A DNA stretch of 64,000 bases from Candidatus Helarchaeota archaeon (GCA_019058315.1 JAHPZH010000003.1:684451-748450), one strand, 5' to 3'. Shown: positions 34,839 to 61,507, counted from the stretch's first letter. Made by a program: numbers and translations. The notes: generated from the sequence alone by a model not told the origin.

Positions 34839-34980
34839 TTTAAAAAACTCCTTTTATTTTAGATTTAAAATTTAAAATATATCATTTTAAATTAATTATG
34901 TTATACCTATTTTTAAAAGAATATTTATATTTCCAATTAAAGTTGTGATTCACCGTCAATAAATTAATGGAAATATAACT

Positions 34981-39497: not shown

Positions 39498-42400
39498 ATG
39501 AAAATTTTGGAGTTGAAAAAGATGCCCGCAATGTCGTCATACTTTAATAAATTGAAATTACATCTAGAAAGGAATGATATTGAAGAAGATAAATTATATG
39601 AACATCAGAAAAGAGCTCACAAATTACTATTTGAGGGGTTTAATTTCTCAGCATTTGTTCCAACAGGTTTCGGAAAAACGGAAGACGCCCTTGCAGCTAT
39701 TGGACATGCCTTATATTGTAATTTGGTAGCGGTTTATCTTGTTCCCCGGGTGATGCTGCTCCACCAAAAAGCCAGACTATTGAAAACCTTCTTTAAGGGG
39801 GTAGCAAGGGTTATTGTCATCCAGGGGGATTTAAAACCTCATCCCAGGGAGTTGAAGGATCCATGGGGAAAGCTCATAATCGTAGCTACATTTGAAAGCT
39901 TCAGAGCTTTCCTATTTTCAGTCCAGAAAAGGCGATATTTTGATAGAAAAACGAATATCTTCGGTTCGGTAGTTATTGACGAAGTGCACATGCTCGGGGA
40001 TAGGACCCATGGACCTTCTCTTGAGACGATGCTGTATAAGTTGCACAAGGAACATGATTCTCAGTTTTGTTTTTTGAGTGGGAGTTTTGAAAAGAGCTCT
40101 GCTGATTGGTGGTGTAAAAGGTTCAACTGTAAATTAGAATACATGTCTCACGAAAGGGATTTTTATTGCTGGAATATTTACGCCGAGCAGTCTACTTTTA
40201 AATGGAAAGATGACAAGATCAAAGAATTATGCAATGAATTTTTAGAATTTCATATATCCCACGATATTCAGGATTTAGCAGAAATACGCCCCGGAAAGAT
40301 GGTGATTTTTATCAGTACTCGCAAAAGAACGGAAATTTATTGTAATAACGTTAAAAACTCCTTAGAATCGAGCAGACCGAACTATAAGGAACATTTTAAA
40401 TGCAGTTTTATTCATGCGGGCATGACATTGGAAGAAAGAAAACAAATTTTTGATGATTTTAACAGCGATAAAGGTGTTAGATTTCTTTTTTGTACAACAG
40501 TGATTGAAGTAGGTATCGATATAAAAAACATTGAAGTGGTCTTGATCGAAGATGCCCATAAATATTCAGCCATTAAAAGAACTCAAATGATTGGGAGGAT
40601 GAGGTTAAATCATGGAGTTGTCATAAATATGATTCCTCTATTTGCTAAACGCCGTTTTAAAAGATCTATCATATATGAGAAAACATATGCAGCGAAAAAG
40701 ATCTTACCTAGTGTAAATTTTGCACTGTTTAGCTGGTATTATTGGTTTTCTGGGAGAAAAAGAATATTTTGGAGTATAGAGTATCCTTCGGAAGAAAGTG
40801 AGAAAGATAGAACGATATTTCATTATTCTGATACAGAACCCATTAGAGGATATAAATTAGAAAAGATTACTAGCCGAATCGATCTTAGACATCTGCCTGA
40901 CCTAATCCTTGAATCGTTATTTCGAACCCAAAAGAGTTTATCACAAATAGAAGATCATTTAAAGAGCATAATGGGGGAGTATGTATTAGTAGATAGAAAT
41001 AAGAAAACGATCAAAAGGAAAATTCATGAATTCGTAGGTATGAAATATATAAGGTCTACTGGAAGCAAATTTAGTCTTACATATATTGGGGAGGCTATAG
41101 TGGAGGGACACTTACCATATTTTTTTGCTGATAGGATTCTAAGAACATTTGAGGTTTTTCCCGAGCTCCCTACTCGAGAAATAAAACTGTTAATTGGGGA
41201 ACTGGTCGCGATGAAAGAAGCTAGTTCCAAGAAGATGTGGGATGTAGAAATGTTCATTAAAAATTACAGTAAAGATCCGATTATATTTACCGAAAATCTT
41301 GAAAAATATAAAATTTTAAAAGGGGATGCGGAGGTTTATCGCCGTTGTGCTGCTTGGATAGCTAGCGCTATTTACCTACTCTATCGGGGATATCAATTTC
41401 ATAATTTTGTTGAAGAAATTCGAACTAACATCGAATGTATAAATTCTGTGTTGTTTTGGGCTAAATTTCATAGAAGAAACCTGGATTACCACCATGTGGC
41501 ACTAAAAGAGCCAAGGAAATTGTCTAAAAGAATTTGTAATAGAATAAATCGAATTATTAAAACGTTTCAAAAATCTGGGGTGAGGGTGAATCTGCAAAAA
41601 CCACCCATGTGGCCCTATCAGAAATATCATGATTCTAAAGGAGCTGCCGTTTTAAACAACAAGATTATTGAAGTATTAGGAGAATCTGATGATGAGGGAC
41701 TTACTATATTTGAAATGGCTCAAAAAATTAACTCTGACCCCGACTTCAAAAACACCCTTATTACAGAGTCCAGAATTGCAGGACGGTTGAAAAACAGCCT
41801 AGCATCACGGGTTGAGCGCATCAAGGTTTATACCAATACGGGGGCACCCCATTTTAGATATTACTTAAAGGGAAACCTGCCCGAGCAAAGCGAGTTCACA
41901 TGCGCAAATTGTAATAATTTTGAAAAAGACCCGGCTAAGCGAATTTCGACAGCGGGTACAGTTTATACCTGCCAAAAATTAGAGATGGCAGTAAACGCAA
42001 ATAACCCTTCGTGTGCTCATTTTGAGCCCTATGAAAATGAATCTAGGACGTTTGCTACTTTTCCATTCAAATGGAACATTGAAGTATGCCCCAAATGTAA
42101 TGCTAGAAAAACTATTAGAGTGCCTCAACATGGAGAAGCTACCATTTGTAAGCGCTGTAACGTCCTTGTTGAGCGAACGGACAACGGTACTTTTAGAGCG
42201 ACTACAAGGCATAAAGTCTCAGAAAATATTGTCCAAACTGACGATAAGGGGATGAAATATATTGAGACCGACCCGAATAAGAGGGTAGTTTATGTTCCAA
42301 CAGACCATACATTAACAACAGAATACATTCCCGAAGGAAATTATTATATAGTCAAAGTACGCGGACTTGGAATACGTTCTTTTTTAAAACAGGTCGCTGA

Positions 42401-45400
42401 AGTGGTCTTGGGAGGGGGGACAATTGGTGAAGATGCCAAAGAACTCTTAAAAGAGCATGAAATCAAAATAACAAATTATTCGGATGAGCAGGTCCAAGAG
42501 CTTGAAAGCAGAAAAAAACGGGAAAGTAAACTTCGCAGATTGCTTCGAAGCAAGAGAGTTAAGGGAGAATTATTAATAATTGCAAGGGAGCGGACTTATG
42601 CCAAAATAATCTCAGAGATATTATGTGTTAAGAAAATGGAGGAGCTTTTTCCAAAATATAAATCCCTTATTAACAGGACCATCAAAAAACAAATGGACCA
42701 GCTAATTAAAACTTATTTGGACACGACACGGGGGTCAGCTAGGGTAAAAAACAAAAAGGAAAAAGTTCAAAGTGTAATTAAGAAATTACGTATGATAGAA
42801 GGTATTGTTGCAGAGCTCGGGTGGATAGTCCCAAGAAGAATACTTGAGGATAAATGCCCCGAACTCAGCACCTATGGAAGGGGAAAGGGAAGATATGCCC
42901 GGTCTATAGTAAAAAGTAGGGGTAAAGCCCTTGATAAATTAAATGCGGTGATAAATTATCTGTATTACATGCTCCAAATAGAAGGTAGTGAGGCGTTCTA
43001 TGAAGCGGGATTTTCTAAACTATTCCCGGGACCGGGATTATTGCATTACAGGAGAAAAAAACCGAGAAAACGGGGAAGGAAATATAAAGCATTGTACTGG
43101 GCTATGACAAAAAGAAATACGGGAGCAATTTTTGATTTTATAGACCAATATAAACCCATCATAAATTTCTATGTATTCAAATTCATCCTTGATGGGGAAT
43201 TAGATCCTAAAACGGACATTTGGCAAAAATATGATGAACGAAAAAGAAGAATATATTTCCTTTCCCCACAAGGAAGAAATAAAGTAAAAGAGTTATTTGA
43301 GCAGATTTGTTCCTCAAAATTTGTATATAAAAATAAAAAATTCACTTTTAAGACCATAATGAAAAAAGAAGCTGAAAATCTGGCCAAATATTTGGAATCA
43401 AAGCGAAAAATTTCATATACGCCATTTATTTGCTTTGAAAATGAGGATGATGCAATATGGGCAAATAGTAATTTGCGATTCATACATAATATTTTGGGAA
43501 AGGGGAAATATCGAGGTTATATATCTCAGAATTTTGAAACCAAATATAGAAAAAAGAGTAATAGAGTGCGGCGTAGAAGACGGGTTGTTTCCCCCGAACC
43601 CGAACAATTACCTCTCAACGTAGTTATCGTGCATCACACCGATTTTGATGGGTTCAAATCCGCACTTAACCTTGTGTATAAGCACCTGGGCAATAGAATA
43701 CACCTTTTCTATGCAACAAACAATAAAGGGAGAAATTACATTGAATCAGTGCTTGAAAACAAAGTTGCGAGGGTGTTACACAGGAAGCTAAAAAACATAA
43801 TTTATATTGCAGATTTTCCGCTACCCATAGAACGTGAGGACTTCCTTGTGGATTTCTTTAATAGCTTAAAGAAGAGAGGGTTGATTTTTGAGCCCTACTG
43901 GTTTGACCACCACGATACTCCTGGAGTCCAGCAAATGAGGGAAGTGATACGAGAGTTTGGTGGAGAGTTCTTCCACACGAATGATGAGGATGTCGAAACA
44001 TATGACTTAATCATGAACCATATTAAAAGTACTAGGCCTAGAATTAGAGATGTAAAGGCTTACCAGCAACTTGACATTAATTCTGTAGAGGATTTTGATG
44101 AAAACTTGAAAACCATAAACACCTCTGCTAATCTATCTAATTGGCATGAGCAGTATGACTATCATAGGCTTGAATCCCACTATAAAATAAATTTTCTTAA
44201 CTTTTTCAAGCGTATGTGTGTGCATGAAATTAATAATAAGAACTCTAAAGATAAGAAACCTAAAGAAACTAAAGGATTTAAGCGATATCAAGTTAGGATC
44301 GAAGCACTCATTAAAAACCCACAGAAATTGTTATATTATTATGATTTTGGGGAAACTGGGTACGGGTTTAAATACGCATTTTTTATGTTTAAGAGGAGTT
44401 TTCCCATACGAAAAATTAATAAGCTCATTAAAACCTTGGGAAGAAATCCAGGTCAAATAGATATCAAAATTTATTACTGGCAAGACCATACCATATCATT
44501 ACGTGCAAAAAAATCAACACAGCTTAGTTTCCAAGGATTGCTTGGTGAGAAAATGGGACACAAAAAAGCTACTGGACTACGTTCACAGAAGGTCAAATTT
44601 GTCCCTCATAAAATAGATTCCAATTATCATCTTGATTTTGAATACGGGTACTTTACAAGCATAGCGGAATTCATGGCAAGGCTCAAGATTAGTCCCCTTC
44701 AACGAGCATCGGGAACGTTTTCAAAAATAAAAACCCACACATCAGCCTATGAAACGTATCAATATGATTTTATGCCCCCTTTGGCCATGGGAGAGCCTTG
44801 CTTTCCCACATTTTTAAAGAGCTTGGATAAAATATTAAGAGGATTTAATAGCGGGTCTATAAATTTGCTATTTTGTCATAAATATGATCAATATAGGCTG
44901 ATGTATTTTGTCAAATACTTGATGTTAATGGCACAACACGAAAATGGACTGCACTCAAAAAAAGTCGTGTGCATTGATACAACTGCACACACCTTTTATC
45001 GAACGATGCTTACCTTCTTGAATAAATACAAACAGTTTACCCTGGACAATCTTAAAAATATCTTTTTCATTGACGCTTTGAATTTACGAAAGTTAAACAA
45101 AGCGGTCGACGGATTAAAGGGAATGATAGAAACCTATCAACCGAAATTGGTGGTAATAACTTCCCCATTTATCAGTATTAGAAAGAAACACCCAATAAAA
45201 AACCACTTAATACCTTACGAGGTGGAAACAACCTCTATACGGTCAACGGAGGCGGCACGATTGGTCAGGAAAATTAGAAAAATAGCAAGAAATACAGGCA
45301 TGATATTCTTACTCACACACTTCGTAAATTGGTATAAAGTATTTAAGACCAAAAACCCCTACCTCTATAACTCTATAAGTTTTGATACCTCAATCTTCTT

Positions 45401-45941
45401 GAAAAAAGATAAAGACAACATTCTCAAGCTTGATATAATCCATGTATGGCGAAAAGACACAACTTGTAAAATAAAGCTTGATATGAAGCGAAAGAGGTTA
45501 CAATTGAAAGATATATGTCATGTACCTATTTTAAAAGGGATGAAGGTAATTCGCAACAATATTACCTCGAATTACCCCGAGCTGGCTTATTGCATGGAAG
45601 GGTATAATAAATATGGGGTAAAATTCCTTATTTTTAAGTTCAATCGAGGAGTTCGTGGAGTCCATAAGTTAAGAAACAGTCTAGGGATTAACAGAAGTCT
45701 AGATATTATTATAAGGGCGGATAATAAAATAGATTTTTATAACTTTGAACCCGAATTTATTAATTTAGACGCTCTATTACATTTTGGGGGAGTCCCAAAT
45801 GAAGAAACCATGATAATCGGTGGAAAAGAACGTTTTGTACGATGGATCCGGATGTATCCAGCATTATATAAAGAATTCTTCGATTCTTTTGAAGAGTTCT
45901 TTCTGCATTTTCTCAATATAAACCTTACAAACCCAAGATAG
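39498..45941 (+). CDS. Multidomain protein: SF2 Ski2/Hel308-like helicase - wHTH - Zn fingers - Cas1 - DHH/DHHA1 - degenerate RecA/RadB-like domain
   Basis: PTGFGKT, DEVH, TTVIEVGID, QMIGR; Cas1 region ~aa 928-1310 with LRMIEG (E1101), DKLNAVINYLY, GLLH (H1183), FDFIDQYKP (D1213/D1216); HHTDFDG, IADF, WFDHH, GHKKATG; PTFLKSLDKILRG, VVCIDT, PKLVVITS. Confidence 0.85.
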   Translation: MKILELKKMPAMSSYFNKLKLHLERNDIEEDKLYEHQKRAHKLLFEGFNFSAFVPTGFGKTEDALAAIGHALYCNLVAVYLVPRVMLLHQKARLLKTFFKGVARVIVIQGDLKPHPRELKDPWGKLIIVATFESFRAFLFSVQKRRYFDRKTNIFGSVVIDEVHMLGDRTHGPSLETMLYKLHKEHDSQFCFLSGSFEKSSADWWCKRFNCKLEYMSHERDFYCWNIYAEQSTFKWKDDKIKELCNEFLEFHISHDIQDLAEIRPGKMVIFISTRKRTEIYCNNVKNSLESSRPNYKEHFKCSFIHAGMTLEERKQIFDDFNSDKGVRFLFCTTVIEVGIDIKNIEVVLIEDAHKYSAIKRTQMIGRMRLNHGVVINMIPLFAKRRFKRSIIYEKTYAAKKILPSVNFALFSWYYWFSGRKRIFWSIEYPSEESEKDRTIFHYSDTEPIRGYKLEKITSRIDLRHLPDLILESLFRTQKSLSQIEDHLKSIMGEYVLVDRNKKTIKRKIHEFVGMKYIRSTGSKFSLTYIGEAIVEGHLPYFFADRILRTFEVFPELPTREIKLLIGELVAMKEASSKKMWDVEMFIKNYSKDPIIFTENLEKYKILKGDAEVYRRCAAWIASAIYLLYRGYQFHNFVEEIRTNIECINSVLFWAKFHRRNLDYHHVALKEPRKLSKRICNRINRIIKTFQKSGVRVNLQKPPMWPYQKYHDSKGAAVLNNKIIEVLGESDDEGLTIFEMAQKINSDPDFKNTLITESRIAGRLKNSLASRVERIKVYTNTGAPHFRYYLKGNLPEQSEFTCANCNNFEKDPAKRISTAGTVYTCQKLEMAVNANNPSCAHFEPYENESRTFATFPFKWNIEVCPKCNARKTIRVPQHGEATICKRCNVLVERTDNGTFRATTRHKVSENIVQTDDKGMKYIETDPNKRVVYVPTDHTLTTEYIPEGNYYIVKVRGLGIRSFLKQVAEVVLGGGTIGEDAKELLKEHEIKITNYSDEQVQELESRKKRESKLRRLLRSKRVKGELLIIARERTYAKIISEILCVKKMEELFPKYKSLINRTIKKQMDQLIKTYLDTTRGSARVKNKKEKVQSVIKKLRMIEGIVAELGWIVPRRILEDKCPELSTYGRGKGRYARSIVKSRGKALDKLNAVINYLYYMLQIEGSEAFYEAGFSKLFPGPGLLHYRRKKPRKRGRKYKALYWAMTKRNTGAIFDFIDQYKPIINFYVFKFILDGELDPKTDIWQKYDERKRRIYFLSPQGRNKVKELFEQICSSKFVYKNKKFTFKTIMKKEAENLAKYLESKRKISYTPFICFENEDDAIWANSNLRFIHNILGKGKYRGYISQNFETKYRKKSNRVRRRRRVVSPEPEQLPLNVVIVHHTDFDGFKSALNLVYKHLGNRIHLFYATNNKGRNYIESVLENKVARVLHRKLKNIIYIADFPLPIEREDFLVDFFNSLKKRGLIFEPYWFDHHDTPGVQQMREVIREFGGEFFHTNDEDVETYDLIMNHIKSTRPRIRDVKAYQQLDINSVEDFDENLKTINTSANLSNWHEQYDYHRLESHYKINFLNFFKRMCVHEINNKNSKDKKPKETKGFKRYQVRIEALIKNPQKLLYYYDFGETGYGFKYAFFMFKRSFPIRKINKLIKTLGRNPGQIDIKIYYWQDHTISLRAKKSTQLSFQGLLGEKMGHKKATGLRSQKVKFVPHKIDSNYHLDFEYGYFTSIAEFMARLKISPLQRASGTFSKIKTHTSAYETYQYDFMPPLAMGEPCFPTFLKSLDKILRGFNSGSINLLFCHKYDQYRLMYFVKYLMLMAQHENGLHSKKVVCIDTTAHTFYRTMLTFLNKYKQFTLDNLKNIFFIDALNLRKLNKAVDGLKGMIETYQPKLVVITSPFISIRKKHPIKNHLIPYEVETTSIRSTEAARLVRKIRKIARNTGMIFLLTHFVNWYKVFKTKNPYLYNSISFDTSIFLKKDKDNILKLDIIHVWRKDTTCKIKLDMKRKRLQLKDICHVPILKGMKVIRNNITSNYPELAYCMEGYNKYGVKFLIFKFNRGVRGVHKLRNSLGINRSLDIIIRADNKIDFYNFEPEFINLDALLHFGGVPNEETMIIGGKERFVRWIRMYPALYKEFFDSFEEFFLHFLNINLTNPR

Positions 45942-45966: not shown

Positions 45967-46503
45967 TTATTCTATAAAATATTTTTTTATAAGATAAGAG
46001 GAAAATCCCTTATCATCCCTAAAATAATCATATTTATCTTCCTCACTCTCAAATCTTCGATCCTTATAAGTGCTTTCTACAATTGAATTAATAAATTCGA
46101 TAAAAAGATCGATATCTGATTTAAGTTCGTTAACTTCATGCCTTAATTTATCAACTAATTCTTTATTCTTAGGACTTTCAGTTAATTTTTTTGATACTCT
46201 CTTTCTCGATTGAGTCTGTAGCTCCAGTTTTTCCTTTTCTAGTTTTTGAACTTGAGTATTTAATTTTTTTAATTCATTATTAATTCCTATTATTTCTGAA
46301 AGATTTTGCATTGGAACCCACCAGATCCAAGATCCGCGATTTTTTGTCTGTTTTCCTTTAATTTTTCCCTCAATTGCTAATTTATCTAAACGGTTTTTTA
46401 TAATATGTCGTGGTTTTTTTAATAATTTGACAATTTCAGTTGTGGTATATGGTCTATTTGTATTTGAAAAAATTGATAAAATGTCTTGAATAATTTGAAC
46501 CAT
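45967..46503 (-). CDS. wHTH DNA-binding protein with coiled coil
   Basis: PYTTTEIVKLL...RLDKLAIEGKIKGKQ..SWIWW. Confidence 0.7.
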   Translation of the reverse strand: MVQIIQDILSIFSNTNRPYTTTEIVKLLKKPRHIIKNRLDKLAIEGKIKGKQTKNRGSWIWWVPMQNLSEIIGINNELKKLNTQVQKLEKEKLELQTQSRKRVSKKLTESPKNKELVDKLRHEVNELKSDIDLFIEFINSIVESTYKDRRFESEEDKYDYFRDDKGFSSYLIKKYFIE

Positions 46504-46843
46504 TTTTCTCCATCTTAACTTGTTAACTAACTAGTTAATGAACTAGTGTTTTTTTAAATTTTTCTAATTACTTATTTTATCAAAGATCGCTACACCCCTA
46601 ATTGGATTCCTTGTATGTTTATTGTTCTATCTTTGCTCTCGTTAATCAATCAATTTAAAAGCAATTTATAATAAAACAACTAAGAAATAGAGTTTCCTTA
46701 TCCAATCTTGTGGTAAAACTCTTTTTCTGGACTTCTATTTTTACGATTTGAGACCGACATATTCGATTTTTCATCTCTAACGCACAAGGAAAAAGTGAGA
46801 TGGCTTAAGGAGTTTGAAAATTATAAATTTATAAGTTAAAAAG

Positions 46844-47371
46844 TTGATATATTTAGAAATAAGTAGTGTATCAAATCTAAAAATAAGGAGTTTTGTGGGT
46901 GTTAAAAAAATGAGAGGAGCAAAAACGTTAAGCACAATTTGTTTTTTTCTAGCATTTGGATACTTTATTTATAACTTACAAAATCTTGAACTTTATTATC
47001 CATTAATTTTACTCTTTCTCGGATTAGGAGCTTTATTTCTTATACTATCACCAACTGAAGCTATAGAGAAACAAACTGAGAAAATTTCAGTCTATGACCA
47101 AGACTATTTGGAAAGATATGGAGATAATAGTCAAATTGAAAATTATAACCAAAAAGATCATAAATATAGTATCGCAATTAGTAGAGCTTTTAAAAAAGTT
47201 GACGAAGCTCTGAAGATAAATCCAAATTTAACTATTGAAGAACAGCTTAAATTGGCTCAACTTGAAAAAACACAAGTCTCATGTCCAATTTGTAACAATT
47301 TCTTATTTGTATATTATAAATTTTTAGTCTATTGTTCAAATTGTGAGAAATTTATTTCAGAATTAAAATAA
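46844..47371 (+). CDS. Two-TM membrane protein with C-terminal Zn ribbon (probable start at MRGAK)
   Basis: Two hydrophobic helices; CPIC...CSNC. Confidence 0.6.
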   Translation: MIYLEISSVSNLKIRSFVGVKKMRGAKTLSTICFFLAFGYFIYNLQNLELYYPLILLFLGLGALFLILSPTEAIEKQTEKISVYDQDYLERYGDNSQIENYNQKDHKYSIAISRAFKKVDEALKINPNLTIEEQLKLAQLEKTQVSCPICNNFLFVYYKFLVYCSNCEKFISELK

Positions 47372-47412
47372 TTTTCAAATGATATTTTATATTTGATGTA
47401 GGAGGTGAGTTA

Positions 47413-48846: not shown

Positions 48847-48960
48847 ATTAAAAAGTTAAAAATGTTAAAAAAGTTAAAATGTTTAAGAAATTTAAAAAGT
48901 TTAAAATTTTAAAAATCTTAAAAAATTTAAATAAATTAAGAATTTTAAAAAATTGAAAAA
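48847..48960 (+). repeat. Degenerate ~10-bp tandem repeat (TTAAAAA core), about 11 units
   Basis: ttaaaaag-ttaaaaatg-ttaaaaaag-ttaaaatgt-ttaagaaat-ttaaaaagt-ttaaaattt-... running up to the next start codon. Confidence 0.75.
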
Positions 48961-49905: not shown

Positions 49906-49967
49906 ATTTTTCAGACTTCTCTATTATTTTTCCATAAAAGATATTGAGTGAACATACGTTCTCTCTT

Positions 49968-50162
49968 CTAATAATGTTTTCTCTCGTATCTTATTAATGC
50001 ACCATTTAATGGAAAGTAAAAAGCATCCTCTGTCTTAAAAATCGTCTTGATATCATTAATTTTCGCTATTTTGGTAAATTCATCTTTATCTTCAACAGTT
50101 AACATCAAACTTCCTGTGTGTTTTTTGGCTTTAATTATAAGAATTTTAGATTTTTTCTCCAA
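49968..50162 (-). CDS. Small hypothetical protein
   Basis: GGAGGTG SD upstream of TTG. Confidence 0.55.
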   Translation of the reverse strand: MEKKSKILIIKAKKHTGSLMLTVEDKDEFTKIAKINDIKTIFKTEDAFYFPLNGALIRYERKHY

Positions 50163-50200
50163 ATTTTAACACCTCCAACTTCAGCAAATCATTCCCATTT

Positions 50201-50437
50201 TTAGGATTTTTTTTCTTTTTCAAGTAGTGCTAATGATAGTGTAGGACTTAATGTACAAATTAAAACTATTACAATTAAAAGATTAGATGGTAAATTGCTA
50301 AAAAATCCGTAATATATCAAAATAACATATAAAATAACATTACTGGCTATCAATTGAATTAAAACATAATATACCATTCGGTTCTGTTTAAACATAACAA
50401 ATCCTCCATTAATAATTTCGTTATTTTTATTTATCAT
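50201..50437 (-). CDS. Small two-TM membrane protein
   Basis: Two hydrophobic helices; GGAGG precedes the internal ATG (MFKQN). Confidence 0.55.
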   Translation of the reverse strand: MINKNNEIINGGFVMFKQNRMVYYVLIQLIASNVILYVILIYYGFFSNLPSNLLIVIVLICTLSPTLSLALLEKEKKS

Positions 50438-50480
50438 AAGGTCTTTTAAATTTTTTAAAAATAATACAAATCATTACCTT

Positions 50481-50642
50481 ATGACATATAAAATTGAATA
50501 TTTTTATTTTGATTACAGTTTGGTCTTAACGTGTGAATGTGGTAGAGTTTCTAAGCAATTCGGTTCGAACCATACCAATACATTCAAGTGTCCGTGCGGG
50601 TTAACCTATAAAGTGTTGCCAGAAGTAGTTAAAATTAAATAA
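50481..50642 (+). CDS. 53-aa CxC..CxC Zn-ribbon microprotein, copy 1 (not in ORF track)
   Basis: MTYKIEYFYFDYSLVLTCECGRVSKQFGSNHTNTFKCPCGLTYKVLPEVVKIK; 5 of 8 changed codons versus copy 2 are synonymous. Confidence 0.7.
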   Translation: MTYKIEYFYFDYSLVLTCECGRVSKQFGSNHTNTFKCPCGLTYKVLPEVVKIK

Positions 50643-50679
50643 TTATAATACTATATTATTATACATCCTTAACTTATTC

Positions 50680-50904
50680 ATGGTTGGTGGAGGTGAAAAC
50701 TTGGAGAAAAGAAAAGATAAAAAATTAAATACTTTTGAATGCAAGCAATGTCCTGTTTGTGGCTCAAAAAATTTTAGTGAAAAAAAGAAACTTAAAATTT
50801 ACCGTTGGAAAAGGGGACGACCTTGGAATATAATATTTACAGTTCTAATTTGTCAAGATTGTTCCTATGCAATGTTTTTTTACACTGAAGGAGAGTTTGA
50901 GTGA
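50680..50904 (+). CDS. Small Zn-ribbon protein
   Basis: CPVC...CQDC; GGAGGTGA precedes TTG at 50701. Confidence 0.65.
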   Translation: MVGGGENLEKRKDKKLNTFECKQCPVCGSKNFSEKKKLKIYRWKRGRPWNIIFTVLICQDCSYAMFFYTEGEFE

Positions 50905-51045
50905 TGAAAAGACTATACTCCTACTTACCTGTATTTTTCAAAGGGGGGATGCTAGGAGTAATAATTTTAGATAATATTATAAAGAGAAATCTAAGAAGCA
51001 GCACACTCATCTAAATATAAATAGATGATGGTATAACATTACCTT

Positions 51046-51207
51046 ATGACGTATAAAATTGAATATTTTTATTTTGATTACAGTTTGGTATTAACGTGTT
51101 CATGTGGTAGAGTTTCTAAGCAATTCGGTTCGAACCATACCAATACGTTCAAGTGTTCGTGCGGATTAACATTTAAAGTGTTGCCAGAAGTAGTTAAAAT
51201 TAAATAA
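51046..51207 (+). CDS. 53-aa Zn-ribbon microprotein, copy 2
   Basis: MTYKIEYFYFDYSLVLTCSCGRVSKQFGSNHTNTFKCSCGLTFKVLPEVVKIK; 51037-51207 is a direct repeat of 50472-50642. Confidence 0.7.
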   Translation: MTYKIEYFYFDYSLVLTCSCGRVSKQFGSNHTNTFKCSCGLTFKVLPEVVKIK

Positions 51208-51319
51208 AAGGTTTATCTCAACAAAAAATTTAATAATTATAAACGACAATTTTTTAATCACAAGCTATTAGAGAGGGCATATTGTAATTGCGCTTTAAGA
51301 GCTTAAATTCTATTATTTC

Positions 51320-51892
51320 ATGAGGGTTAGAATGGATAGATCAAAATTTTTATTCTTAACAACTAAACACGGGAGACTTTCATTCGAAAGACCACCTAAG
51401 GGAATGAAAGATGTTATAATTGCAATTACCAGAAAAAATTTAGAGATAAAATCTAAAAAAACAGGAGAAATAAAGAAAATTCCTCTCAAACAGATAGAAA
51501 TGGCAGAAAAAATAGATAGTTCAAAAACTAGCTATGTAGGAACAGCCTTGTTTGGGACACCTCCGACTCAAGATAGAAAAATATACACAAAAATAATAGC
51601 TAAAAAAAGAAAACCTTTTTATATTACATTTATAAGTGGAATGTCTGGTTGGCAAGTGGATTTACACGATGAGTTCTATTCAATTTTGAAATCTAGAATT
51701 GATAAAATAGAAAAAGAAAGCGAATTACAAAAGTTAAAAGAATTGCAAAAACCCACCAATGTTTTTTATATAAATATTCCACCACAGACAAAATTAGCAG
51801 CTTTAAAATGTCCTTCATGCCAAGCACCATTAGAATATATGCCCCCTTGTAAATGTGAGCATTGTGGAGTCATGATTGAGTTAATGAAATAA
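51320..51892 (+). CDS. PH-like domain protein with conserved C-terminal Zn-ribbon tail
   Basis: Beta-rich 'KHGR' domain, IPLKQI, terminal helix; CPSC...CEHC tail. Confidence 0.65.
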   Translation: MRVRMDRSKFLFLTTKHGRLSFERPPKGMKDVIIAITRKNLEIKSKKTGEIKKIPLKQIEMAEKIDSSKTSYVGTALFGTPPTQDRKIYTKIIAKKRKPFYITFISGMSGWQVDLHDEFYSILKSRIDKIEKESELQKLKELQKPTNVFYINIPPQTKLAALKCPSCQAPLEYMPPCKCEHCGVMIELMK

Positions 51893-51895
51893 AAA

Positions 51896-52048
51896 ATGGG
51901 ATCAAAGGGAATGTCTGAAATTACTCTATTTGAAGCAGCTCGACATTGTTATTATTCATTAGAACCTAAGGGAGATAAAATCGATGTCTTTCTCAAAATC
52001 ACTAAAAATGAGTTAAAAATTTGGGTTAAGGTGCTCGATAAAGATTAG
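51896..52048 (+). pseudogene. Truncated fragment of the PH-like family
   Basis: LFEAARHCYYSLEP..DVFLKITKNELKI resembles LFFAEKHGRYSVQRP..DSFIKISKENLTI. Confidence 0.45.
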
Positions 52049-52104
52049 CCATAAGAGATTAAAGGTTAAATGTGAATGATAAAAATAAATGGGAGTAACA
52101 CACC

Positions 52105-52881
52105 TTGAAAGAATTTCTTGAACGATTGGAATGGATGAAAATAAACAAAATCAAAAATAATTCAGAAAAAAATGCACTAGTTGAGTTAAAAAATAGATAC
52201 GGATTACAAAATGAAGACTTTGAATTGGATAAAAGTGGTCATATAATAAAACTGAAAATAATCGGCAAGAAATTACATTTAATTCCAGAAATTTTAAGTG
52301 TCTTTTCCCAGTTACAAGATTTGAATCTTTCAAATAATGAAATTGTGAAAATAGAAAAGCTTGAAAATTTAACCCAATTAAAAGAATTAGACCTTAGTAA
52401 AAATCAGATAACAAAGATATCGGGTCTAGAAGACTTTACTAAGTTCCGAAAATTAGATCTTATGGGAAATCCTCTAGAGAAAGAAGATCAAGTTGTATAT
52501 AAAAAGGGAATAGCTACAGTAATTAAATATTGCCAAAAAAATAAAAGAATAGAGCTATTTAAAAAAAACTTACTTGATTATATTGCTCCTTATGATGAAA
52601 TGACATTTAAAAAAATAGCAGATCATTTCGAATTGGATGTGCTATTTGTTGAAAATGAGATTAAAAATATGTTAGAAAGTAAAAAAATTATTGGCAGATT
52701 GTTTCCTGATAAAATTATCTTAAGAGAATTAAGTCCGAAAATCGATCAGACTGTATATATAACAATTCCACCTAAAACAAAATTGACTGCCTTAAAATGT
52801 CCTTCTTGTCAAGCACCCCTAGAATACATACCTCCCTGTAAATGTGAGCATTGTGGGGTTATGATTGAATTAATGAAATAA
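52105..52881 (+). CDS. Leucine-rich repeat + PCI/wHTH protein with the same Zn-ribbon tail
   Basis: LQDLNLSNNEI, LKELDLSKNQI, LDLMGNP; PYDEMTFKKIADHF..VENEIKNMLESKKIIGRL. Confidence 0.8.
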   Translation: MKEFLERLEWMKINKIKNNSEKNALVELKNRYGLQNEDFELDKSGHIIKLKIIGKKLHLIPEILSVFSQLQDLNLSNNEIVKIEKLENLTQLKELDLSKNQITKISGLEDFTKFRKLDLMGNPLEKEDQVVYKKGIATVIKYCQKNKRIELFKKNLLDYIAPYDEMTFKKIADHFELDVLFVENEIKNMLESKKIIGRLFPDKIILRELSPKIDQTVYITIPPKTKLTALKCPSCQAPLEYIPPCKCEHCGVMIELMK

Positions 52882-52978
52882 GAGAAGAAATTTTATGTTT
52901 AATACGGTTGGTACATAAATGATCCCCGTTGGCATCCTGAACAATGTTTAGATGATGAAAATATAGTAACTACATATA

Positions 52979-53092
52979 TTAACTTGTGCATGTGGTAGAG
53001 TATCCAAGCAATTAGGTTTGAACCATACAAATACATTCAAGTGTCCGTACGGGTTAACATATAAAGTGTTGCCGGAAGTAGTTAAAATTTAA
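52979..53092 (+). pseudogene. 5'-truncated third copy of the Zn-ribbon microgene
   Basis: LTCACGRVSKQLGLNHTNTFKCPYGLTYKVLPEVVKI*; no start codon, last Cys changed to Tyr. Confidence 0.75.
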
Positions 53093-53185
53093 TAATTATA
53101 CATATTAATAATAATTGATATATTAATTCAAAGATTATTTGAGGATCTTTTTTGAGGAGAAAATTATGAAATGGAGGTTTAAACC

Positions 53186-54172
53186 ATTACCGTAAGATCC
53201 GAAGATGTATTATTTCATTGTGAGAAACATGGCAGATTTACAAAGGAAATGACCTATTTTTATAGGATGATAGATTCAAGAATCTCAATAATTAATAAAA
53301 TTATTATAATTAGCCCGAAGAAGAGAAACCTTGGTGAAGTACGGATAGATATTGATAAAATCAAAACGATTAAGATGCATAAAGATAGCTTGAAAGGACC
53401 GGAACCATATTATGAAATTATTCTTGATAATAAAGAAAAATTTTTCATTACTTTTGCCTCTACATGGGGTTCTTCTACAAAAAATCTTCATAAACAATTT
53501 AAAGAAGTATTAAACCAGAAGTTAGGTATTTCTATAAAGCAAGGAATAGATAGAACTGGACCACCTGCATTTTCTTTTAAAATGGCTCCCAGAACGAGTT
53601 TAAAAGAAGAAAAACCATCATTATTTTTTGCTGAAAAACACGGTAGATATTCCGTGCAAAGACCACCAAAAGGATTAAAGGATTCATTTATAAAAATCAG
53701 CAAAGAGAATTTAACAATAGCAATAAAGATTTCTGGAGAGAGAATTAGAGTTCCACTTATAAATATAGATGTTGCTGAAAGAATCGATAGCTCTAAAACA
53801 AGTTATGTTGGCACAGCATTATTCGGAACTCCTCCTGTTCAACAAAGGAAAATTTATACTAAGATTATAACCAAAACGGGACAATCTTTCTATGTAACAT
53901 TTATAAGCGGAATGTCGGGTTGGCAAGTAGAACTACACGATGAATTTTATGCAATTTTAAGGTCACAGCTTGATAGAATTCAAAAGGAAAAAGAATTAGA
54001 AGAACTTAAGAAGATGCAGAAACCAACCAACGTATTTTACATAAATATCCCACCACAAACAAAATTATCTGCTCTAACAGCTTTAAAATGTCCTTCATGT
54101 CAAGCACCTTTGGAATATATGCCACCCTGTAAATGTGAGCATTGCGGGGTTATGATTGAATTAATGAAATAA
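53186..54172 (+). CDS. Tandem PH-like domain protein with the same Zn-ribbon tail (likely ATT start at 53186)
   Basis: Upstream in-frame LFHCEKHGRF matches the second domain LFFAEKHGRY; GGAGGT 7 nt before ATT; second domain is a close paralogue of 51320-51892. Confidence 0.7.
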   Translation: MTVRSEDVLFHCEKHGRFTKEMTYFYRMIDSRISIINKIIIISPKKRNLGEVRIDIDKIKTIKMHKDSLKGPEPYYEIILDNKEKFFITFASTWGSSTKNLHKQFKEVLNQKLGISIKQGIDRTGPPAFSFKMAPRTSLKEEKPSLFFAEKHGRYSVQRPPKGLKDSFIKISKENLTIAIKISGERIRVPLINIDVAERIDSSKTSYVGTALFGTPPVQQRKIYTKIITKTGQSFYVTFISGMSGWQVELHDEFYAILRSQLDRIQKEKELEELKKMQKPTNVFYINIPPQTKLSALTALKCPSCQAPLEYMPPCKCEHCGVMIELMK

Positions 54173-54196
54173 ATAGAAGTAGAATGAGGAAAAGAT

Positions 54197-55156
54197 ATGA
54201 CAGACATAAATGATCTTTCTATTTTCGGGGATTATTCTAATCTGGAGAATAGGGTGACTGTTGCTCTATTACATATTTTTAATGCTGGTAAAGAAGAACT
54301 CATTAGGTTTATTGCCAACAAAATCAAGATAACTCTGCCTTCTAGTGAGATTGATATAATATCCCAAGAAAAGCAACAAGAATCTATTCCAGATGGCACA
54401 TTAAAATGTGGTTTTATGTTTAATCTCTTTATTGAGAGTAAAATAAAACAAAATAGTATAAATACAACTCAGTTAATGAACCATAAAAAAGCTGTAGAAA
54501 AAGTAACCCTAACGAATCCTAACTCATTTTTGTTATATCTCACACCAGACACCAATAAACCAACAGAGCTTGATGAGGAGGTTTACTGGACTAATTGGGA
54601 TTCAATAATTTCTTGGCTAAAAGAATACATTGAGTCCCATGAAGAAGAAGAACTGAAATCCAATTCACTTCTGATCTACTTGGTGGAACAACTTGAAGTC
54701 CTACTTATTAACAAGTCTATAATTTCAGGTGAATGGAATTTTAGTCAGAACGATAAAGTACTGATAGTCGGTGGTAAGGACTTTGGAGAAAAAACTGCAA
54801 TTGAATGTGGTAAATATTTCAGTCAGGGTAATAGGACTTTCCGACCTTCTGGATATATAGCGTTTTATTACAACCATCGAATAGAATATTGTTTTGAGAT
54901 TATTGAACCACCCAAAGAGAACCAAAAATTAATGGACTATCAAGATCTATTTAATATCATCAAAGAAAAGGGTGCTGAAAATGCAGATTGGGTTAAAGAA
55001 CCAAAGAGAATTTTTATTTTAGGAAAACGAGTCCCCATTCAAATAATCCATAATGATAAAAAGAATAGACATGGCGATCCTACTGCTTTCACTTACAATC
55101 AGACTTATACAACTATTGACAAATTAAAAAAAGCAAAATTAACTTCAGAATTATGA
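54197..55156 (+). CDS. PD-(D/E)XK restriction-like nuclease with C-terminal putative base-reader domain
   Basis: ENRVT, IPDGTL, FIESKI, QLMNH. Confidence 0.7.
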   Translation: MTDINDLSIFGDYSNLENRVTVALLHIFNAGKEELIRFIANKIKITLPSSEIDIISQEKQQESIPDGTLKCGFMFNLFIESKIKQNSINTTQLMNHKKAVEKVTLTNPNSFLLYLTPDTNKPTELDEEVYWTNWDSIISWLKEYIESHEEEELKSNSLLIYLVEQLEVLLINKSIISGEWNFSQNDKVLIVGGKDFGEKTAIECGKYFSQGNRTFRPSGYIAFYYNHRIEYCFEIIEPPKENQKLMDYQDLFNIIKEKGAENADWVKEPKRIFILGKRVPIQIIHNDKKNRHGDPTAFTYNQTYTTIDKLKKAKLTSEL

Positions 55157-55184
55157 TTAAATTGAAATGCAGTGAATGGTTAGC

Positions 55185-55651
55185 ATGATTTTTCATGTAA
55201 TAGGTCTCCATTGTGCTGGAAAATCCACATTCATCAAAAAAAATTTCCAAGTGCAGTAGTCCTGGACATGAAAAAATTCTATAAAACCCATGATTTCCTA
55301 CCCGCAACCTCCTATCATGACAGGACCGCACATACTTTGGAACATGAATTTCAAGATTGCCTGAAGGAGGCAAAAAAGAACAATAAAATCTTGGTCGTGG
55401 AGAGTTCGGGGACAAATCAGAGGGTGAATCAGTTGGTTGCGGAACATGACCATATCACCATTTTAGTCGTGACTCCCTTGGAGATTGTAAGGGAACGGAT
55501 TGAGAAGGAGAAAGATCCGGAGTTTGATGCGGAAACGCTGAATAATGCGGTATTGGAGGGGCTGGCAGCGGGGAGGGTGCAATTTGATACGAAATATTTT
55601 ACTCAGTTAGATAGATTTTATCCTGATTTGAAAATTAAAGAATTTGGATAA
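55185..55651 (+). CDS. P-loop nucleotide kinase-like protein split by a -1 frameshift at 55236-55247
   Basis: MIFHVIGLHCAGKSTFIKK (Walker A) in one frame; FPSAVVLD...LVVESSG...RERIEK in the -1 frame. Confidence 0.7.
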
Positions 55652-56303: not shown

Positions 56304-56915
56304 TTGTTATTAAATCTGACTGAACTAAAAAAACCAATTGATAAAAATCAATATAAAAAAAGCGAAATTGATTTTATAAAATATTTTAAAGTGAATAGAA
56401 TTGAATCAATAATAAATCAATTTACTATACTTTTAGAAAAATCAAGTAAAGAAGAAGAGATTCAAAAATTTTTAGAAAAATATCCTATTCTAATCAATCA
56501 ATATTCCAAAGTCTATCCAAAATTTAAATTAGGTGAAAATTACATAACGGATTTTGTTATTAAAAATATACTTGACCAAGGGATTCATTATACTTTAGTT
56601 GAAATAGAAAAATCAAATATGCGAGTGTTAAATAAGGATCGGACTTTCACCTCAGATTTTAACAAGGCATATAAGCAAGTTTTGGATTGGAAAGTGTGGC
56701 TCCAAAAAAATCAAGTTTATATCCAAGGGAAATTGGAAGGTTTTGAAAGCCCATCATTCATAATTATTGGTGGGCGTTCAGAAGGTATTTCAGAAAAGGG
56801 AAAAGAAAATATTCGAGCATGGAATAGGAGCCAAAATAATATCAAATTTTATACTTATGATGATATTTTAAAAAGAGTAGAAGAATATTTAAATAACATA
56901 AAGCAATATTCGTAA
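56304..56915 (+). CDS. sduA: Shedu (SduA, DUF4263) nuclease domain protein
   Basis: EEEIQKFLEKYP, ITDFVI, LVEIEKS, AYKQVLDW, IIIGGRS, TYDDIL. Confidence 0.8.
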   Translation: MLLNLTELKKPIDKNQYKKSEIDFIKYFKVNRIESIINQFTILLEKSSKEEEIQKFLEKYPILINQYSKVYPKFKLGENYITDFVIKNILDQGIHYTLVEIEKSNMRVLNKDRTFTSDFNKAYKQVLDWKVWLQKNQVYIQGKLEGFESPSFIIIGGRSEGISEKGKENIRAWNRSQNNIKFYTYDDILKRVEEYLNNIKQYS

Positions 56916-56923
56916 GGGATAAA

Positions 56924-57274
56924 TTGTCAAAAGAAAGGGAACTCATTGTAGAGTTCGAGAAATACAAGAGGAACAAAATTGAAAATTTCAAATATGAACA
57001 TAGATCACGTCTTAAAGACCAGTTCCGTTTTTTAGTAGATTTGATAGTGAATAAGATTCCCTTGGACTCGGAAGTGGATTTTGGGGGGTTAAGTGGGATG
57101 TGTAAGTGTGGGAAGAAAATAAGTAGGGGGTCTTTATACAAGGATGGTACGGTCGTAGGTTCTACCTGTGCAAGAACCTTGAGTAATATTGCCACCGAAT
57201 TTTCCATGATCGAGCAATTTATTTTATTGAAAGAAGAGGAATTAAATAGGAAATTAAAAGAATTAAGAGGTTAA
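56924..57274 (+). CDS. Hypothetical protein, possible Zn-binding
   Basis: CKCGKKI...VGSTCA. Confidence 0.55.
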   Translation: MSKERELIVEFEKYKRNKIENFKYEHRSRLKDQFRFLVDLIVNKIPLDSEVDFGGLSGMCKCGKKISRGSLYKDGTVVGSTCARTLSNIATEFSMIEQFILLKEEELNRKLKELRG

Positions 57275-59824: not shown

Positions 59825-59869
59825 TCAATTACTTTATCCTCTCTTTTTTTCCTAAAAAATTCTCTTCAT

Positions 59870-61337: not shown

Positions 61338-61439
61338 TTTAATATCTTCACGGAGAACCTCGGAAAAGGGTATGCTACTGATGAAGACTTGAAACATTTG
61401 ATTGATCATTGGAAAGTGACGTACGGGAATTCTTCATAG
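61338..61439 (+). repeat. 102-bp direct repeat of the 3' end of the wHTH gene (59723-59824)
   Basis: FNIFTENLGKGYATDEDLKHLIDHWKVTYGNSS* versus FNIFTENLGKGANTDKDLRHLIDHWKVTYGNSS*. Confidence 0.92.
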
Positions 61440-61507
61440 TATATTGCTTTATTCTACATTTTTCTTTTATAAAAAAAGAGATTTAAAGATATGCATTGAA
61501 CCGTTTT

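Follow-up and report, generated by a model that had tools for sequence, protein, structure and literature searches.

The locus described here raises the question of how a short repeat came to stand three times in direct orientation with genes in between. The window, i.e. the whole stretch of 64,000 nt that was analyzed, belongs to the metagenome-assembled genome (MAG) of an Asgard archaeon, Candidatus Helarchaeota (5.8 Mb, 94% complete, 6.6% contamination). All comparisons but one were made within this single MAG, the exception being L026, an external contig from another MAG of the same genus (GCA_048940975.1). An earlier note on this DNA had likened the layout to an integron cassette array or to a CRISPR-like array with gene-sized spacers, and had speculated that target duplication by Cas1 could be its source.

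Repeat searching returned one direct-repeat family, with members at 50472-50642, 51037-51207 and 52925-53095. The first two are 95% identical, in agreement with their description as near-identical; the third is 71% alike over its whole length, and its blastn match to copies 1 and 2 (88-91%) is confined to 52977-53095. Since identity upstream of 52977 is at chance level, copy 3 is 5'-truncated, as the earlier note had seen. It is moreover a pseudogene: the start codon is missing, stops interrupt the frame upstream, and Tyr replaces a Cys of the second CxC. The alignment reveals an early stop codon common to this copy and to the one at the start of the same contig, C11. The gene carried by the repeat, hereafter F1, and its leader are arranged as follows.

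50423..50480, plus strand: F1 leader, about 58 nt, AT-rich, conserved (seven copies aligned with their flanks)
50481..50642, plus strand: coding sequence of F1 copy 1, an intact 53-aa CxCG...CxCG zinc-ribbon microgene
51037..51207, plus strand: F1 copy 2 (coding sequence 51046-51207), intact, 94% aa identity to copy 1
52977..53095, plus strand: F1 copy 3, a 5'-truncated pseudogene that begins at about nt 45 of the coding sequence

Some 30 nt ahead of the ATG the leader contains a TATA-box-like TTTAAATTTTTT, and it may act as a promoter. It accompanies copy 1 and the copies at the C11 start, on contig C2, on contig C1 and at 586 kb of C11; it is missing at copy 2, whose homology to the other copies extends only from about 12 nt before the ATG to the stop codon. 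Across independent contexts, conservation begins at about -58 and ends 0 to 20 nt past the stop codon. Several F1 copies are followed by oligo-T runs, as read from the sequence.

A census of the genome gave six intact and one truncated F1 copies at five loci. Contig C11 carries five of these seven copies (four loci), and two paralogs lie near contig ends (C11:996 and C2:3031). Copies 1 and 2 are both intact ORFs, so that the repeat does encode a 53-aa CxC/CxC protein. The six intact copies form 15 pairs, each with a dN/dS within 0.03-0.18; variable sites are distributed 6/5/16 over the three codon positions, and the remaining two frames are interrupted by many stops. The repeat is a genuine gene, and one under strong purifying selection. 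The previous statement that copies 1 and 2 differ mostly by synonymous changes barely holds for that pair (nine differing sites, five synonymous and four non-synonymous, the latter causing three residue changes; dN/dS 0.18), but across the six copies selection on the reading frame is clear.

Against DUF1922 (PF09082) the F1 protein scores 22.2 and 20.4 bits, below the Pfam gathering cut-off of 30, and it aligns with MTH1184 (1gh9) through the CxCGR...KCxCG motifs at an E-value of 0.21. Like these proteins it is a small archaeal zinc ribbon of similar size with two CxCG knuckles and a CxCGR...KCxCG.T..V pattern; unlike them it has an extra N-terminal beta-hairpin (YKIEYFYFDY). The AF2 model (pLDDT 70.5) consists of five short strands. 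Fold search with this model against the PDB gave no match at E<=0.001, the best loose rows being CSL/Kti11-type zinc fingers (E about 3), and a feature search of the ESM Atlas gave sub-threshold leads only. A predicted complex of F1 with the downstream protein F2_190 scored 0.00, which argues neither for nor against an association of the two. Relatives were found neither by six-frame search of 6 genomes of the order and 399 of the phylum, nor by F1 peptide patterns in GTDB contigs, JGI metagenomes and IMG/VR, nor with a degenerate DNA pattern built on the C-terminal motif. F1 is also missing from a collection of 5.8 billion proteins, even for its own genome; small ORFs may go uncalled there. 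The sole metagenome match to the F1 DNA pattern (L028) was discarded as a chance match in high-GC DNA. As judged from these searches, F1 appears to be a lineage-specific zinc-ribbon gene.

The genes around and between the copies are listed below.

39498..45941, plus strand: giant 2147-aa helicase-Cas1-like gene, 4.5 kb upstream of F1
49968..50162, minus strand: F8, a 64-aa gene of the conserved left arm common to the paralogous island C1:20.5-25 kb
50201..50437, minus strand: F4, a 78-aa hydrophobic protein, divergent from F1 copy 1, also in the C2-start and C1 islands
50680..50904, plus strand: ZnR74, a 74-aa CxxC...CxxC zinc-ribbon gene, the sole gene between copies 1 and 2
51320..51892, plus strand: F2_190, 190 aa, in which a PH-like domain and a long helix precede a Zn-ribbon tail at the C-terminus
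51896..52048, plus strand: 50-aa ORF, a degenerate F2 fragment corresponding to residues 124-161 of F2_307 (blastp 46% over 39 aa, E 4e-5)
52105..52881, plus strand: 258-aa chimera of LRR repeats, a PCI domain and an F2-type Zn-ribbon tail (52756-52881)
52882..52976, no strand: unique 95-nt stretch, ending at the non-homologous junction where truncated F1 begins
53249..54172, plus strand: F2_307, 307 aa, an extra N-terminal PH-like module followed by F2 core and tail
54197..55156, plus strand: 319-aa gene, single-copy, filling a variable slot between F2 and F9
55211..55651, plus strand: F9, 146 aa, a conserved gene that anchors the island backbone on the right

Pfam domains of the giant gene are DEAD, Helicase_C and Cas_Cas1 (27.1 bits, residues 966-1187), and tblastn places a paralog, 76% identical, at the end of the same contig. 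On the left arm, 49966-50641 matches C1:21235-20559 at 93% (blastn); F8 has 87.5% aa identity to its C1 counterpart (tblastn; dS 0.41, dN/dS 0.14), and F4 has 86-91% aa identity to C2:2760-2987 and C1:20763-20978. Two hydrophobic stretches in its sequence indicate that F4 is probably a membrane protein. ZnR74 is single-copy, tblastn of the genome returning only itself, and weakly matches Lar_restr_allev (E 1.3e-4, below cut-off). The AF2 model of F2_190 (pLDDT 75) matches PH-domain folds, namely the SSRP1 NTD and the Btk PH domain (E about 1e-3, prob 1.00). The chimera matches LRR_4 (4e-16) and PCI (4e-6), and beyond 52900 up to copy 3 blastn found no match in the genome. F9 is 90% identical at the nucleotide level to C11:3915-4382 and 88% to L026:2788-3249, and homologs of it are present in Helarchaeota MAGs.

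The genes between the repeats had been taken as unrelated; this does not hold for all of them. F2_190, the 50-aa fragment, the tail of the LRR-PCI gene and F2_307 all belong to the F2 group: F2_190 is 72% identical to residues 125-307 (the C-terminal 183) of F2_307 (E 6e-96), and the 126-nt tail of the chimera is 84% identical in nucleotides to that of F2_190, its aa identity being 77-86%. The first interval, occupied by ZnR74, is without a paralog, and F2 homology is found in the other two. Because F2 paralogs follow copies 2 and 3, these inter-repeat segments are mutually homologous. The earlier note had itself named such homology as counting against its array reading, and in part this is what was found. 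F1 and F2 are also linked at the C11 start, and L026 carries a truncated F1, a copy-2-type spacer, F2, a 193-aa gene and F9. F1 and F2 form an ancestral pair in the lineage of this genome.

Comparison of the five loci and L026, by maps and blastn mosaics, revealed conserved flanks with differing content. Homology of the window with a second island copy begins on the left at 37701, and the region 45-59 kb is a mosaic of paralogous segments found at C11:1-7 kb, the C11 end, C2:1-10.7 kb and C1:20.5-25 kb. Each F1 locus lies inside such a mosaic island, that of the window directly downstream of the giant helicase-Cas1-like gene; a second island is probably also downstream of a giant gene, by way of a join that we infer between the C11 end and the C2 start. 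Behind F1 stand, depending on the locus, ZnR74, F2_190 and F2_307; a 344-aa (Rx4H), a 262-aa (HExxH) and a 445-aa gene; HEPN177 and PD-(D/E)XK229; or CxxCxxCC275, a 435-aa and a WD40 gene. As different genes follow F1 at each of the five loci, the cargo varies. The slot between F2 and F9 is likewise filled by HEPN172 and a 331-aa gene at the C11 start, by the 193-aa gene in L026 and by the 319-aa gene in the window. The comparison of homologous elements suggested in the earlier note is thus answered in two ways, with different genes beside a conserved F1 and homologous segments after copies 2 and 3. Cargo across the islands includes HEPN, Shedu SduA_C, Schlafen/AlbA_2 and PD-(D/E)XK-like genes. 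At three loci (C11 start, C1 and C2), the first two genes behind F1 include a HEPN-type gene; that of the window is three genes upstream of F1, on the opposite strand. PADLOC recognised none of ten cargo proteins, six from window positions 50680-55648 and four from two paralogous islands.

The ages of neighbouring elements are discordant. F2_190 and F2_307 are saturated at synonymous sites (dS 2.3-2.6) whereas F1 copies differ by a dS of 0.18-0.31 (about 0.2 for the adjacent ones), so that the F1 copies are about ten times younger at these sites than the neighbouring F2 paralogs. The unit made of copy 3 and F2_307 (52977-54175) has a counterpart at C11:1039-2239, at a distance of 735 kb along the contig, with 95.9% identity over 1201 nt (blastn; dS 0.147); identity to neighbouring F2_190 is just 74%. 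Within F1, 23 of 45 informative site pairs fail the four-gamete test (tree-only simulations, P 0.002-0.013, with only 10 informative sites), a pattern that points to gene-conversion mosaicism among the copies.

These observations are probably best explained by non-allelic recombination among island paralogs, without a dedicated cassette recombinase. F1 would be a conserved backbone gene marking the left boundary of a variable region whose genes are mostly unknown or defence-like, on an ancestral backbone composed of F1, F2, a variable slot and F9. The array of the window would consist of three F1-headed pieces in tandem: F1 and the 74-aa Zn-ribbon gene; F1 with F2_190, the F2 fragment and the LRR-PCI/F2-tail chimera; and truncated F1 with F2_307, the 319-aa gene and F9. 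Non-allelic recombination between island paralogs would have assembled these pieces, homologous exchange and gene conversion within F1 would keep the copies alike, and at least one illegitimate junction (52976/52977) would have removed the 5' end of copy 3. Two observations sit poorly with this scheme. Homology of F1 contexts stops 0-20 nt from the stop codon at every locus, i.e. the 3' boundaries are tidier than random breakpoints, which could reflect a specific site or simply selection that keeps the gene whole where the genome is compact. Furthermore, a leaderless copy 2 reduced to the gene itself is not predicted by simple homologous exchange. A retro-copy origin of copy 2 was considered and rejected: only its boundaries favour it, and old diverged flanks with gene conversion explain them equally well. 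Recombination intermediates or polymorphic forms were not seen in contigs, which are blind to rare forms.

An in-situ tandem duplication of the F1-F2 unit, with its left breakpoint inside F1 and later divergence and decay without exchange between loci, is unlikely. A breakpoint inside a gene yields exactly the succession of intact gene, segment and truncated gene, F2 paralogs do follow copies 2 and 3 with an F2 fragment in between, and copies 1 and 2 have in common two private synonymous variants (nt 15 and 72 of the coding sequence). Divergence is, however, unequal across the supposed unit: F2 is saturated, yet the F1 remnant, although free of selection, has kept 88-91% identity to copies 1 and 2; truncated F1 and F2_307 are closest to the distant locus and not to adjacent F2_190; and F1 sites are phylogenetically incompatible.

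Within the recombination scheme, F1 and its leader could be more than a passive anchor. They might form a portable recombination handle, by which the island copies, five or more in number, shuffle, stack and swap cargo through homologous exchange behind one conserved, expressed entry point. We regard this as a rather long shot. The same role might fall to F9 and to 3' ends of further core genes (for example the 59723/61338 repeat), and the helicase-Cas1-RecA-like giant protein might help. If true, this would be integron-like gene capture in an Asgard archaeon without a site-specific integrase.

The layout might instead reflect a functional two-part module, in which F1 serves the downstream genes as a zinc-ribbon regulator or partner, or its 3' end carries their promoter; this is quite improbable. 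The next gene invariably reads in the direction of F1 and lies 37-157 nt downstream of it, and the F1-F2 adjacency is kept in four places and two genomes, even where F1 is reduced to its 3' part. The two genomes share the final 36 nt of the F1 coding sequence, stop codon included, without a single difference; this stretch closes with an AT-rich, TATA-like run, and HEPN-type genes occur near F1 as described above. However, at a GC content of 30% TATA-like runs are frequent, the oligo-T runs suggest that F1 may be monocistronic, and F2_190 has orthologs (77-78%) in Helarchaeota MAGs without F1.

A cassette platform is very unlikely. On this reading the F1 3' border would be attI-like and a recombinase, either the Cas1 domain of the giant protein or TnpB, would insert cassettes and duplicate its target. 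It agrees with the arrest of context homology at most 20 nt from the stop codon at all five loci, with cargo that differs at each of them, with a Cas1-like domain and a TnpB gene 4.5-12 kb upstream, and with a second pattern of intact gene, insert and 3' fragment at 59723-59859 / 61338-61476. Searches for the corresponding machinery were negative. The whole genome has just two genes with the tyrosine recombinase domain PF00589 (C5:822820 and C7:268825), none of them on C11 or near F1 loci, and Pfam scans of all neighbours revealed no recombinase. In integrons each cassette ends in an attC site, an imperfect palindrome that forms a hairpin in single-stranded DNA. Single-stranded DNA folds of both repeat strands gave no attC-like hairpin (z -0.44 to +0.83 against shuffles), and an Rfam search of 46-58 kb at E<=1 gave no match. 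The F1 3'-end motif is confined to the seven F1 copies and never stands at the far end of a cargo segment, and truncation points differ, at nt 45 of the coding sequence in the window and at about nt 72 in L026. Nor is the repeat of CRISPR type. In CRISPR arrays near-identical, non-coding repeats of about 23-50 nt alternate with short spacers of regular size; the present repeat is 171 nt long, coding and selected at the protein level (dN/dS about 0.1), its copies are 71-95% alike, the intervals of 394 nt and 1769 nt bear genes, and TRF detected no array. Neither Cas2, a CRISPR leader, TIR nor a 14-15-bp target duplication was seen. Inverted repeats in 48-56 kb are at most 44 nt long and mostly 70-83% complementary (one 24-nt pair 92%), which is chance level, and they do not bracket the segments. 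In known Cas1 reactions the duplicated DNA is a single CRISPR repeat or, with casposases, 14-15 bp; the F1 duplication, at 119-171 nt, is far above these, and a Cas1-made insertion is therefore unsupported. Of the earlier comparison with integrons and CRISPR, what survives is the cargo differing at five loci; the recurring piece is a selected gene without hairpin, integrase or recurring junction, and an integron-like, CRISPR-like or Cas1-made array is not supported.

An apparent array made by collapsed or chimeric strain variants is barely credible: the MAG has some contamination and F1 paralogs near contig ends probably broke the assembly, but the three copies differ, so that collapse did not create them, and Logan contigs, from a run that may be the source sample and is thus not fully independent, span 50613-51081 and 51178-53168 at flank depth (about 18-19x) without alternative joints. 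These contigs, blind to rare forms, showed no joints, circles or deletions over the locus; it was listed in one DNA run (a sediment metagenome, probably the source sample) and in no RNA run.

With recombination among island paralogs as the preferred explanation, the attractive reading of an integron- or CRISPR-like array built by a CRISPR-less Cas1 is removed. It is replaced by a multi-copy family of mosaic islands in an Asgard archaeon, in which variable slots, some with defence-like content, lie between conserved anchors, and a zinc-ribbon microgene restricted to this lineage would evolve in concert across island copies. The surprise is modest, since the proposed mechanism is ordinary recombination. 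These results may be of use for annotating small genes overlooked by gene callers and for understanding the genome plasticity of Asgard archaea, and they give a context for the giant helicase-Cas1 fusion.

Several known systems resemble the F1 islands in part. Integrons are reported also in Archaea in a preprint (bioRxiv 10.1101/2022.02.06.479319). As in integron cassette arrays, co-directional genes are separated by a recurring sequence and content differs between related arrays; unlike in integrons, the integrase is absent and the recurring piece is a selected, hairpin-less coding gene that heads units instead of ending them. CRISPR arrays and casposons come to mind through direct repeats alternating with unique DNA and through the Cas1-like domain in the neighbourhood, but the repeat is long, coding and diverged, and the "spacers" are 0.4-1.8 kb of genes. 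Polymorphic toxin loci (Rhs/CDI) carry orphan-cassette arrays, in which repeated, partly truncated conserved stretches each precede different genes, as here; by analogy, recombination between repeats could swap genes behind an intact, expressed copy. In the F1 array, however, an entire small gene is repeated, where those loci repeat the 3' portion of a large toxin gene, and toxin/immunity pairs are not evident. Variable hotspots flanked by conserved genes are known from defence islands and P2/P4-type elements, and the F1 islands are like them in that conserved anchors (F4/F1, F2, F9, F13-like) alternate with differing slots. They are set apart from known hotspots by their Asgard host, by their tie to a giant helicase-Cas1-like gene, and by an anchor that is a 53-aa orphan microgene, triplicated at one locus.

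The direct repeats at 50472-50642 and 51037-51207 are 95% alike by repeat search, and the same search returned 52925-53095 as a third member (71% over its full length). With blastn the match of this third copy to the others is limited to 52977-53095 (88-91%), identity further upstream being at chance level. The near-identical pair and the diverged, 5'-truncated third copy described in the earlier note were thus borne out. A 24-nt probe taken from the 3' end of the repeat matches three places in the window (none expected by chance), all of them copies of the repeat. In copies 1 and 2 the 53-aa ORF is intact and has two CxC(G) knuckles; in copy 3 stop codons just upstream close the frame, a start codon is lacking and the second knuckle is CPY. 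Six-frame searching across the complete 5.8-Mb assembly (12 contigs) turned up six intact copies of this gene, F1, and one truncated copy.

Copies of F1 and the genes downstream of each (C11 is the contig containing the window, which spans C11:684451-748450)
Window 50472-50642, copy 1: ZnR74, a 74-aa gene
Window 51037-51207, copy 2: F2_190, of the PH-like/Zn-ribbon family F2
Window 52977-53095, copy 3, truncated: F2_307, of the same family
C11:996, contig start: F2_307, HEPN protein, 331-aa gene, then F9, a 146-aa right-hand anchor
C11:586178, minus strand: CxxCxxCC, 435-aa gene, WD40 gene
C2:3031, contig start: 344-aa Rx4H protein, 262-aa HExxH protein, 445-aa protein
C1:20561, minus strand: HEPN-like and PD-(D/E)XK-like genes

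The 15 pairwise comparisons among intact copies give dN/dS of 0.03-0.18 at dS 0.18-0.53, variable sites at codon positions 1/2/3 number 6/5/16, and stops fill the other two frames; the repeat therefore encodes a protein, as had been proposed. Aligned with its flanks, the conserved unit runs from about 58 nt 5' of the ATG through the stop codon, and contexts diverge 0-20 nt beyond. The leader is rich in A and T and has a TATA-like TTTAAATTTTTT some 30 nt upstream, from which we infer a promoter role. The protein matches DUF1922 below threshold (22 bits; cut-off 30), and the MTH1184 structure 1gh9 aligns to it on the CxCGR...KCxCG motifs (E 0.21). Its AF2 model is a small beta-rich domain (pLDDT 70.5), for which a fold search against PDB gave no significant match. 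We read F1 as a small zinc ribbon; it is a new gene family.

The genes between the copies were then considered. The first interval holds a single gene, ZnR74 (CxxC...CxxC, single-copy), and the second holds three: F2_190, a 50-aa ORF that represents a fragmentary member of the F2 family, and a 258-aa LRR and PCI protein whose C-terminus is the same 126-nt tail as that of F2_190. In the model of F2_190 (190 aa), a PH-like domain (Foldseek: SSRP1 NTD and Btk PH matched at E ~1e-3, prob 1.00) leads into a long helix, and a Zn-ribbon tail closes the protein. Over 183 residues F2_307 and F2_190 share 72% identity (E 6e-96), so that two of the three "cassettes" are mutually paralogous. The claim that unrelated genes separate the repeats holds for ZnR74 and fails for the F2 paralogs, and the same match speaks in part against the cassette reading itself, against which the earlier note had counted any homology between inter-repeat segments. 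At least 20 ORFs across the whole genome (for example C5:970623, C9:31149, C11:235930 and C3:719980-723326), 143-370 aa long and differing in their N-terminal parts, close with the F2-type tail (CPSCQAPLEY..C.CEHCG), a promiscuous C-terminal module here. Helarchaeota and Hodarchaeota MAGs also have PCI-domain proteins that bear this tail.

Searches of six other genomes of the order, 399 of the phylum, GTDB contigs, JGI metagenomes and IMG/VR gave no F1. The gene is missing from a collection of 5.8 billion proteins even for its own genome, and so was evidently never called as a gene. The sole external trace, reached via a homolog of a neighbouring gene, is on a 4.5-kb contig of a Promethearchaeota MAG (L026): a 5'-truncated F1 with the last 29 codons present at 89% nt identity, of which the final 36 nt of CDS, stop codon included, are identical in the two genomes. 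Homologs from Promethearchaeota, Helarchaeota and Hodarchaeota MAGs put the window's genome in the Asgard archaea. Two contigs of Helarchaeota MAGs have an F2_190-like gene next to an F9-like one and no F1. The F2/F9 pair hence predates the island context and is more widespread, F1 being a recent addition of narrow distribution. The F2_190-like and F9-like genes (77-78% and 77-80% aa, respectively) are divergent neighbours at L027:5406-6567 and L029:2003-3164, surrounded by ordinary genes (TauE, HD, ARMT1-like).

Within the assembly, window 37.7-45.8 kb, which contains TnpB and a giant 2147-aa gene (DEAD, Helicase_C and Cas1-like domain), is 81% identical to C11:835914-843982, the latter running off the contig end. 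The region 46-59 kb is a patchwork of blastn matches to other islands.

Window segments matching other islands
46419-46683: C2:1-265, 97%
46745-47372 and 49966-50641: C1, 93%
50208-50661: C2:2758-3212, 93%
52977-54175: C11:1039-2239, 96%
55185-55651: C11:3915-4382, 90%
56912-57269: C11 and C2, 87%

The giant gene has a close paralog in the genome, at 76% aa, and three distant paralogs at 27-34% aa.

Loci of the giant-gene family
Window 39498-45941
C11:837712-843981
C6:304856-312496
C7:32486-39220
C1:395906-399778

At the end of contig C2 (C2:383459-384600) a TnpB fragment (88% to window 38658-39132) directly abuts the 3'-terminal 666 nt of a paralog of the giant gene (86% to window 45269-45934); this is either an assembly seam or a derivative of the element that has lost about 6 kb. 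Elsewhere in the window, about 12 tandem copies of a 9-nt unit (consensus AAAAATTTA) at 48850-48960, between 323-aa and 138-aa genes, could be an iteron-like or regulatory spacer. Segments 23429-24920 and 33585-34865 are parts of 1252-aa and 493-aa ORFs, internally periodic repeat-domain proteins of a very large family, which has dozens of stretches at 65-76% identity spread over many contigs.

Upstream of F1, the left-arm genes F4 (small, hydrophobic) and F8 are divergent in the window, C2 and C1. The order F1 - F2 - slot - F9 is kept as a backbone, and what fills the slot differs from one occurrence to the next: a 319-aa gene in the window, HEPN and 331-aa genes at the C11 start, a 193-aa gene in L026. 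Gene maps of the F1 loci thus confirm that cargo beside the conserved gene varies among homologous elements. The two genes 3' of the C2 copy (C2:3256-5124) carry Rx4H (RDLESH) and HExxH (HEIGH) motifs, and are possibly a HEPN-like and zincin pair; a Pfam search of them gave no significant match.

Synonymous divergence between F2_190 and F2_307 is saturated (dS 2.3-2.6, dN/dS 0.07), whereas the F1 copies preceding them stand at dS ~0.2. The unit of truncated F1 and F2_307 is at dS 0.147 from the C11-start unit, with a premature stop at codon 53 in common, and has just 74% identity to the neighbouring F2_190. Left-arm genes common to the window and C1 show dS of 0.08-0.41, like F1. In F1, 23 of 45 informative site pairs fail the four-gamete test (P = 0.002 in no-recombination simulations on the NJ tree; 0.013 with only 40 mutable sites). 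Together, the dS contrasts, the likeness to the C11 start and the four-gamete failures argue that F1 copies probably exchange sequence by gene conversion, and that the array would be a composite whose pieces have their relatives in different island copies, and not the product of a single local duplication that aged in place.

The left arm would be of C1 type (F6 ... F8, F4, F1), followed by a middle block of ZnR74 and of F1, F2_190, the F2 fragment and the LRR-PCI/F2-tail chimera; the right arm would be of C11-start type (truncated F1, F2_307 ... F9 ... F13-like). At the seam 52976/52977 unique DNA meets the interior of F1, which makes this junction illegitimate; the seams to the left, located in or at F1, could be homologous. 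Such a layout may come from a homologous crossover in F1 with an illegitimate end-join (homology-facilitated illegitimate recombination, known from bacterial transformation), from Campbell-type insertion of a circle bearing a partial F1, or from unequal exchange between two island copies, three routes that all fit. The assembled order itself is supported by Logan contigs of the single run containing the locus, a run that is possibly the source sample. Their spans, 50613-51081 and 51178-53168, have a flank-like depth of ~18-19x and show no alternative joints. An "intact gene - insert - 3' fragment" layout like that of F1 copy 3 is also seen where the 3' end of a 148-aa wHTH gene (59723-59859) recurs at 61338-61476 (85%, about 1.6 kb downstream; also at C10:197875-198009), the two bracketing a pair of minus-strand genes.

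Assembly from island pieces leaves some odd points: divergence right after the F1 stop in all contexts, a leaderless copy 2, and F1 3' fragments retained before F2 in two genomes. They leave room for the F1 3' end acting as promoter or partner for the next gene and, less likely, for a specific site at the F1 3' border. This 3' end does not recur at other cargo junctions in the window or the genome, and truncation points differ (~nt 45 in the window, ~nt 72 in L026). The integron- or CRISPR-like array, possibly Cas1-made, of the earlier note is not supported: no recombinase domain was found among the neighbour genes (the two tyrosine recombinase genes of the whole genome are both off contig C11), the repeat as single-stranded DNA folds no better than shuffles, Rfam gave no match, and neither a CRISPR-type array nor inverted repeats bracketing the segments were found. 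Known Cas1 reactions duplicate one CRISPR repeat or 14-15 bp, unlike the 119-171 nt of a selected gene duplicated here. The defining features that were tested are lacking, so the array belongs to neither the integron, the CRISPR nor the casposon family.

The island is multi-copy, and its architecture is a variable hotspot set between conserved anchors, among them an orphan zinc-ribbon microgene that is locally multiplied. This is a new example, in Asgard archaea, of a known kind of genome architecture, and somewhat resembles the orphan-cassette arrays of polymorphic toxin loci, in which homologous exchange acts on repeated conserved stretches.
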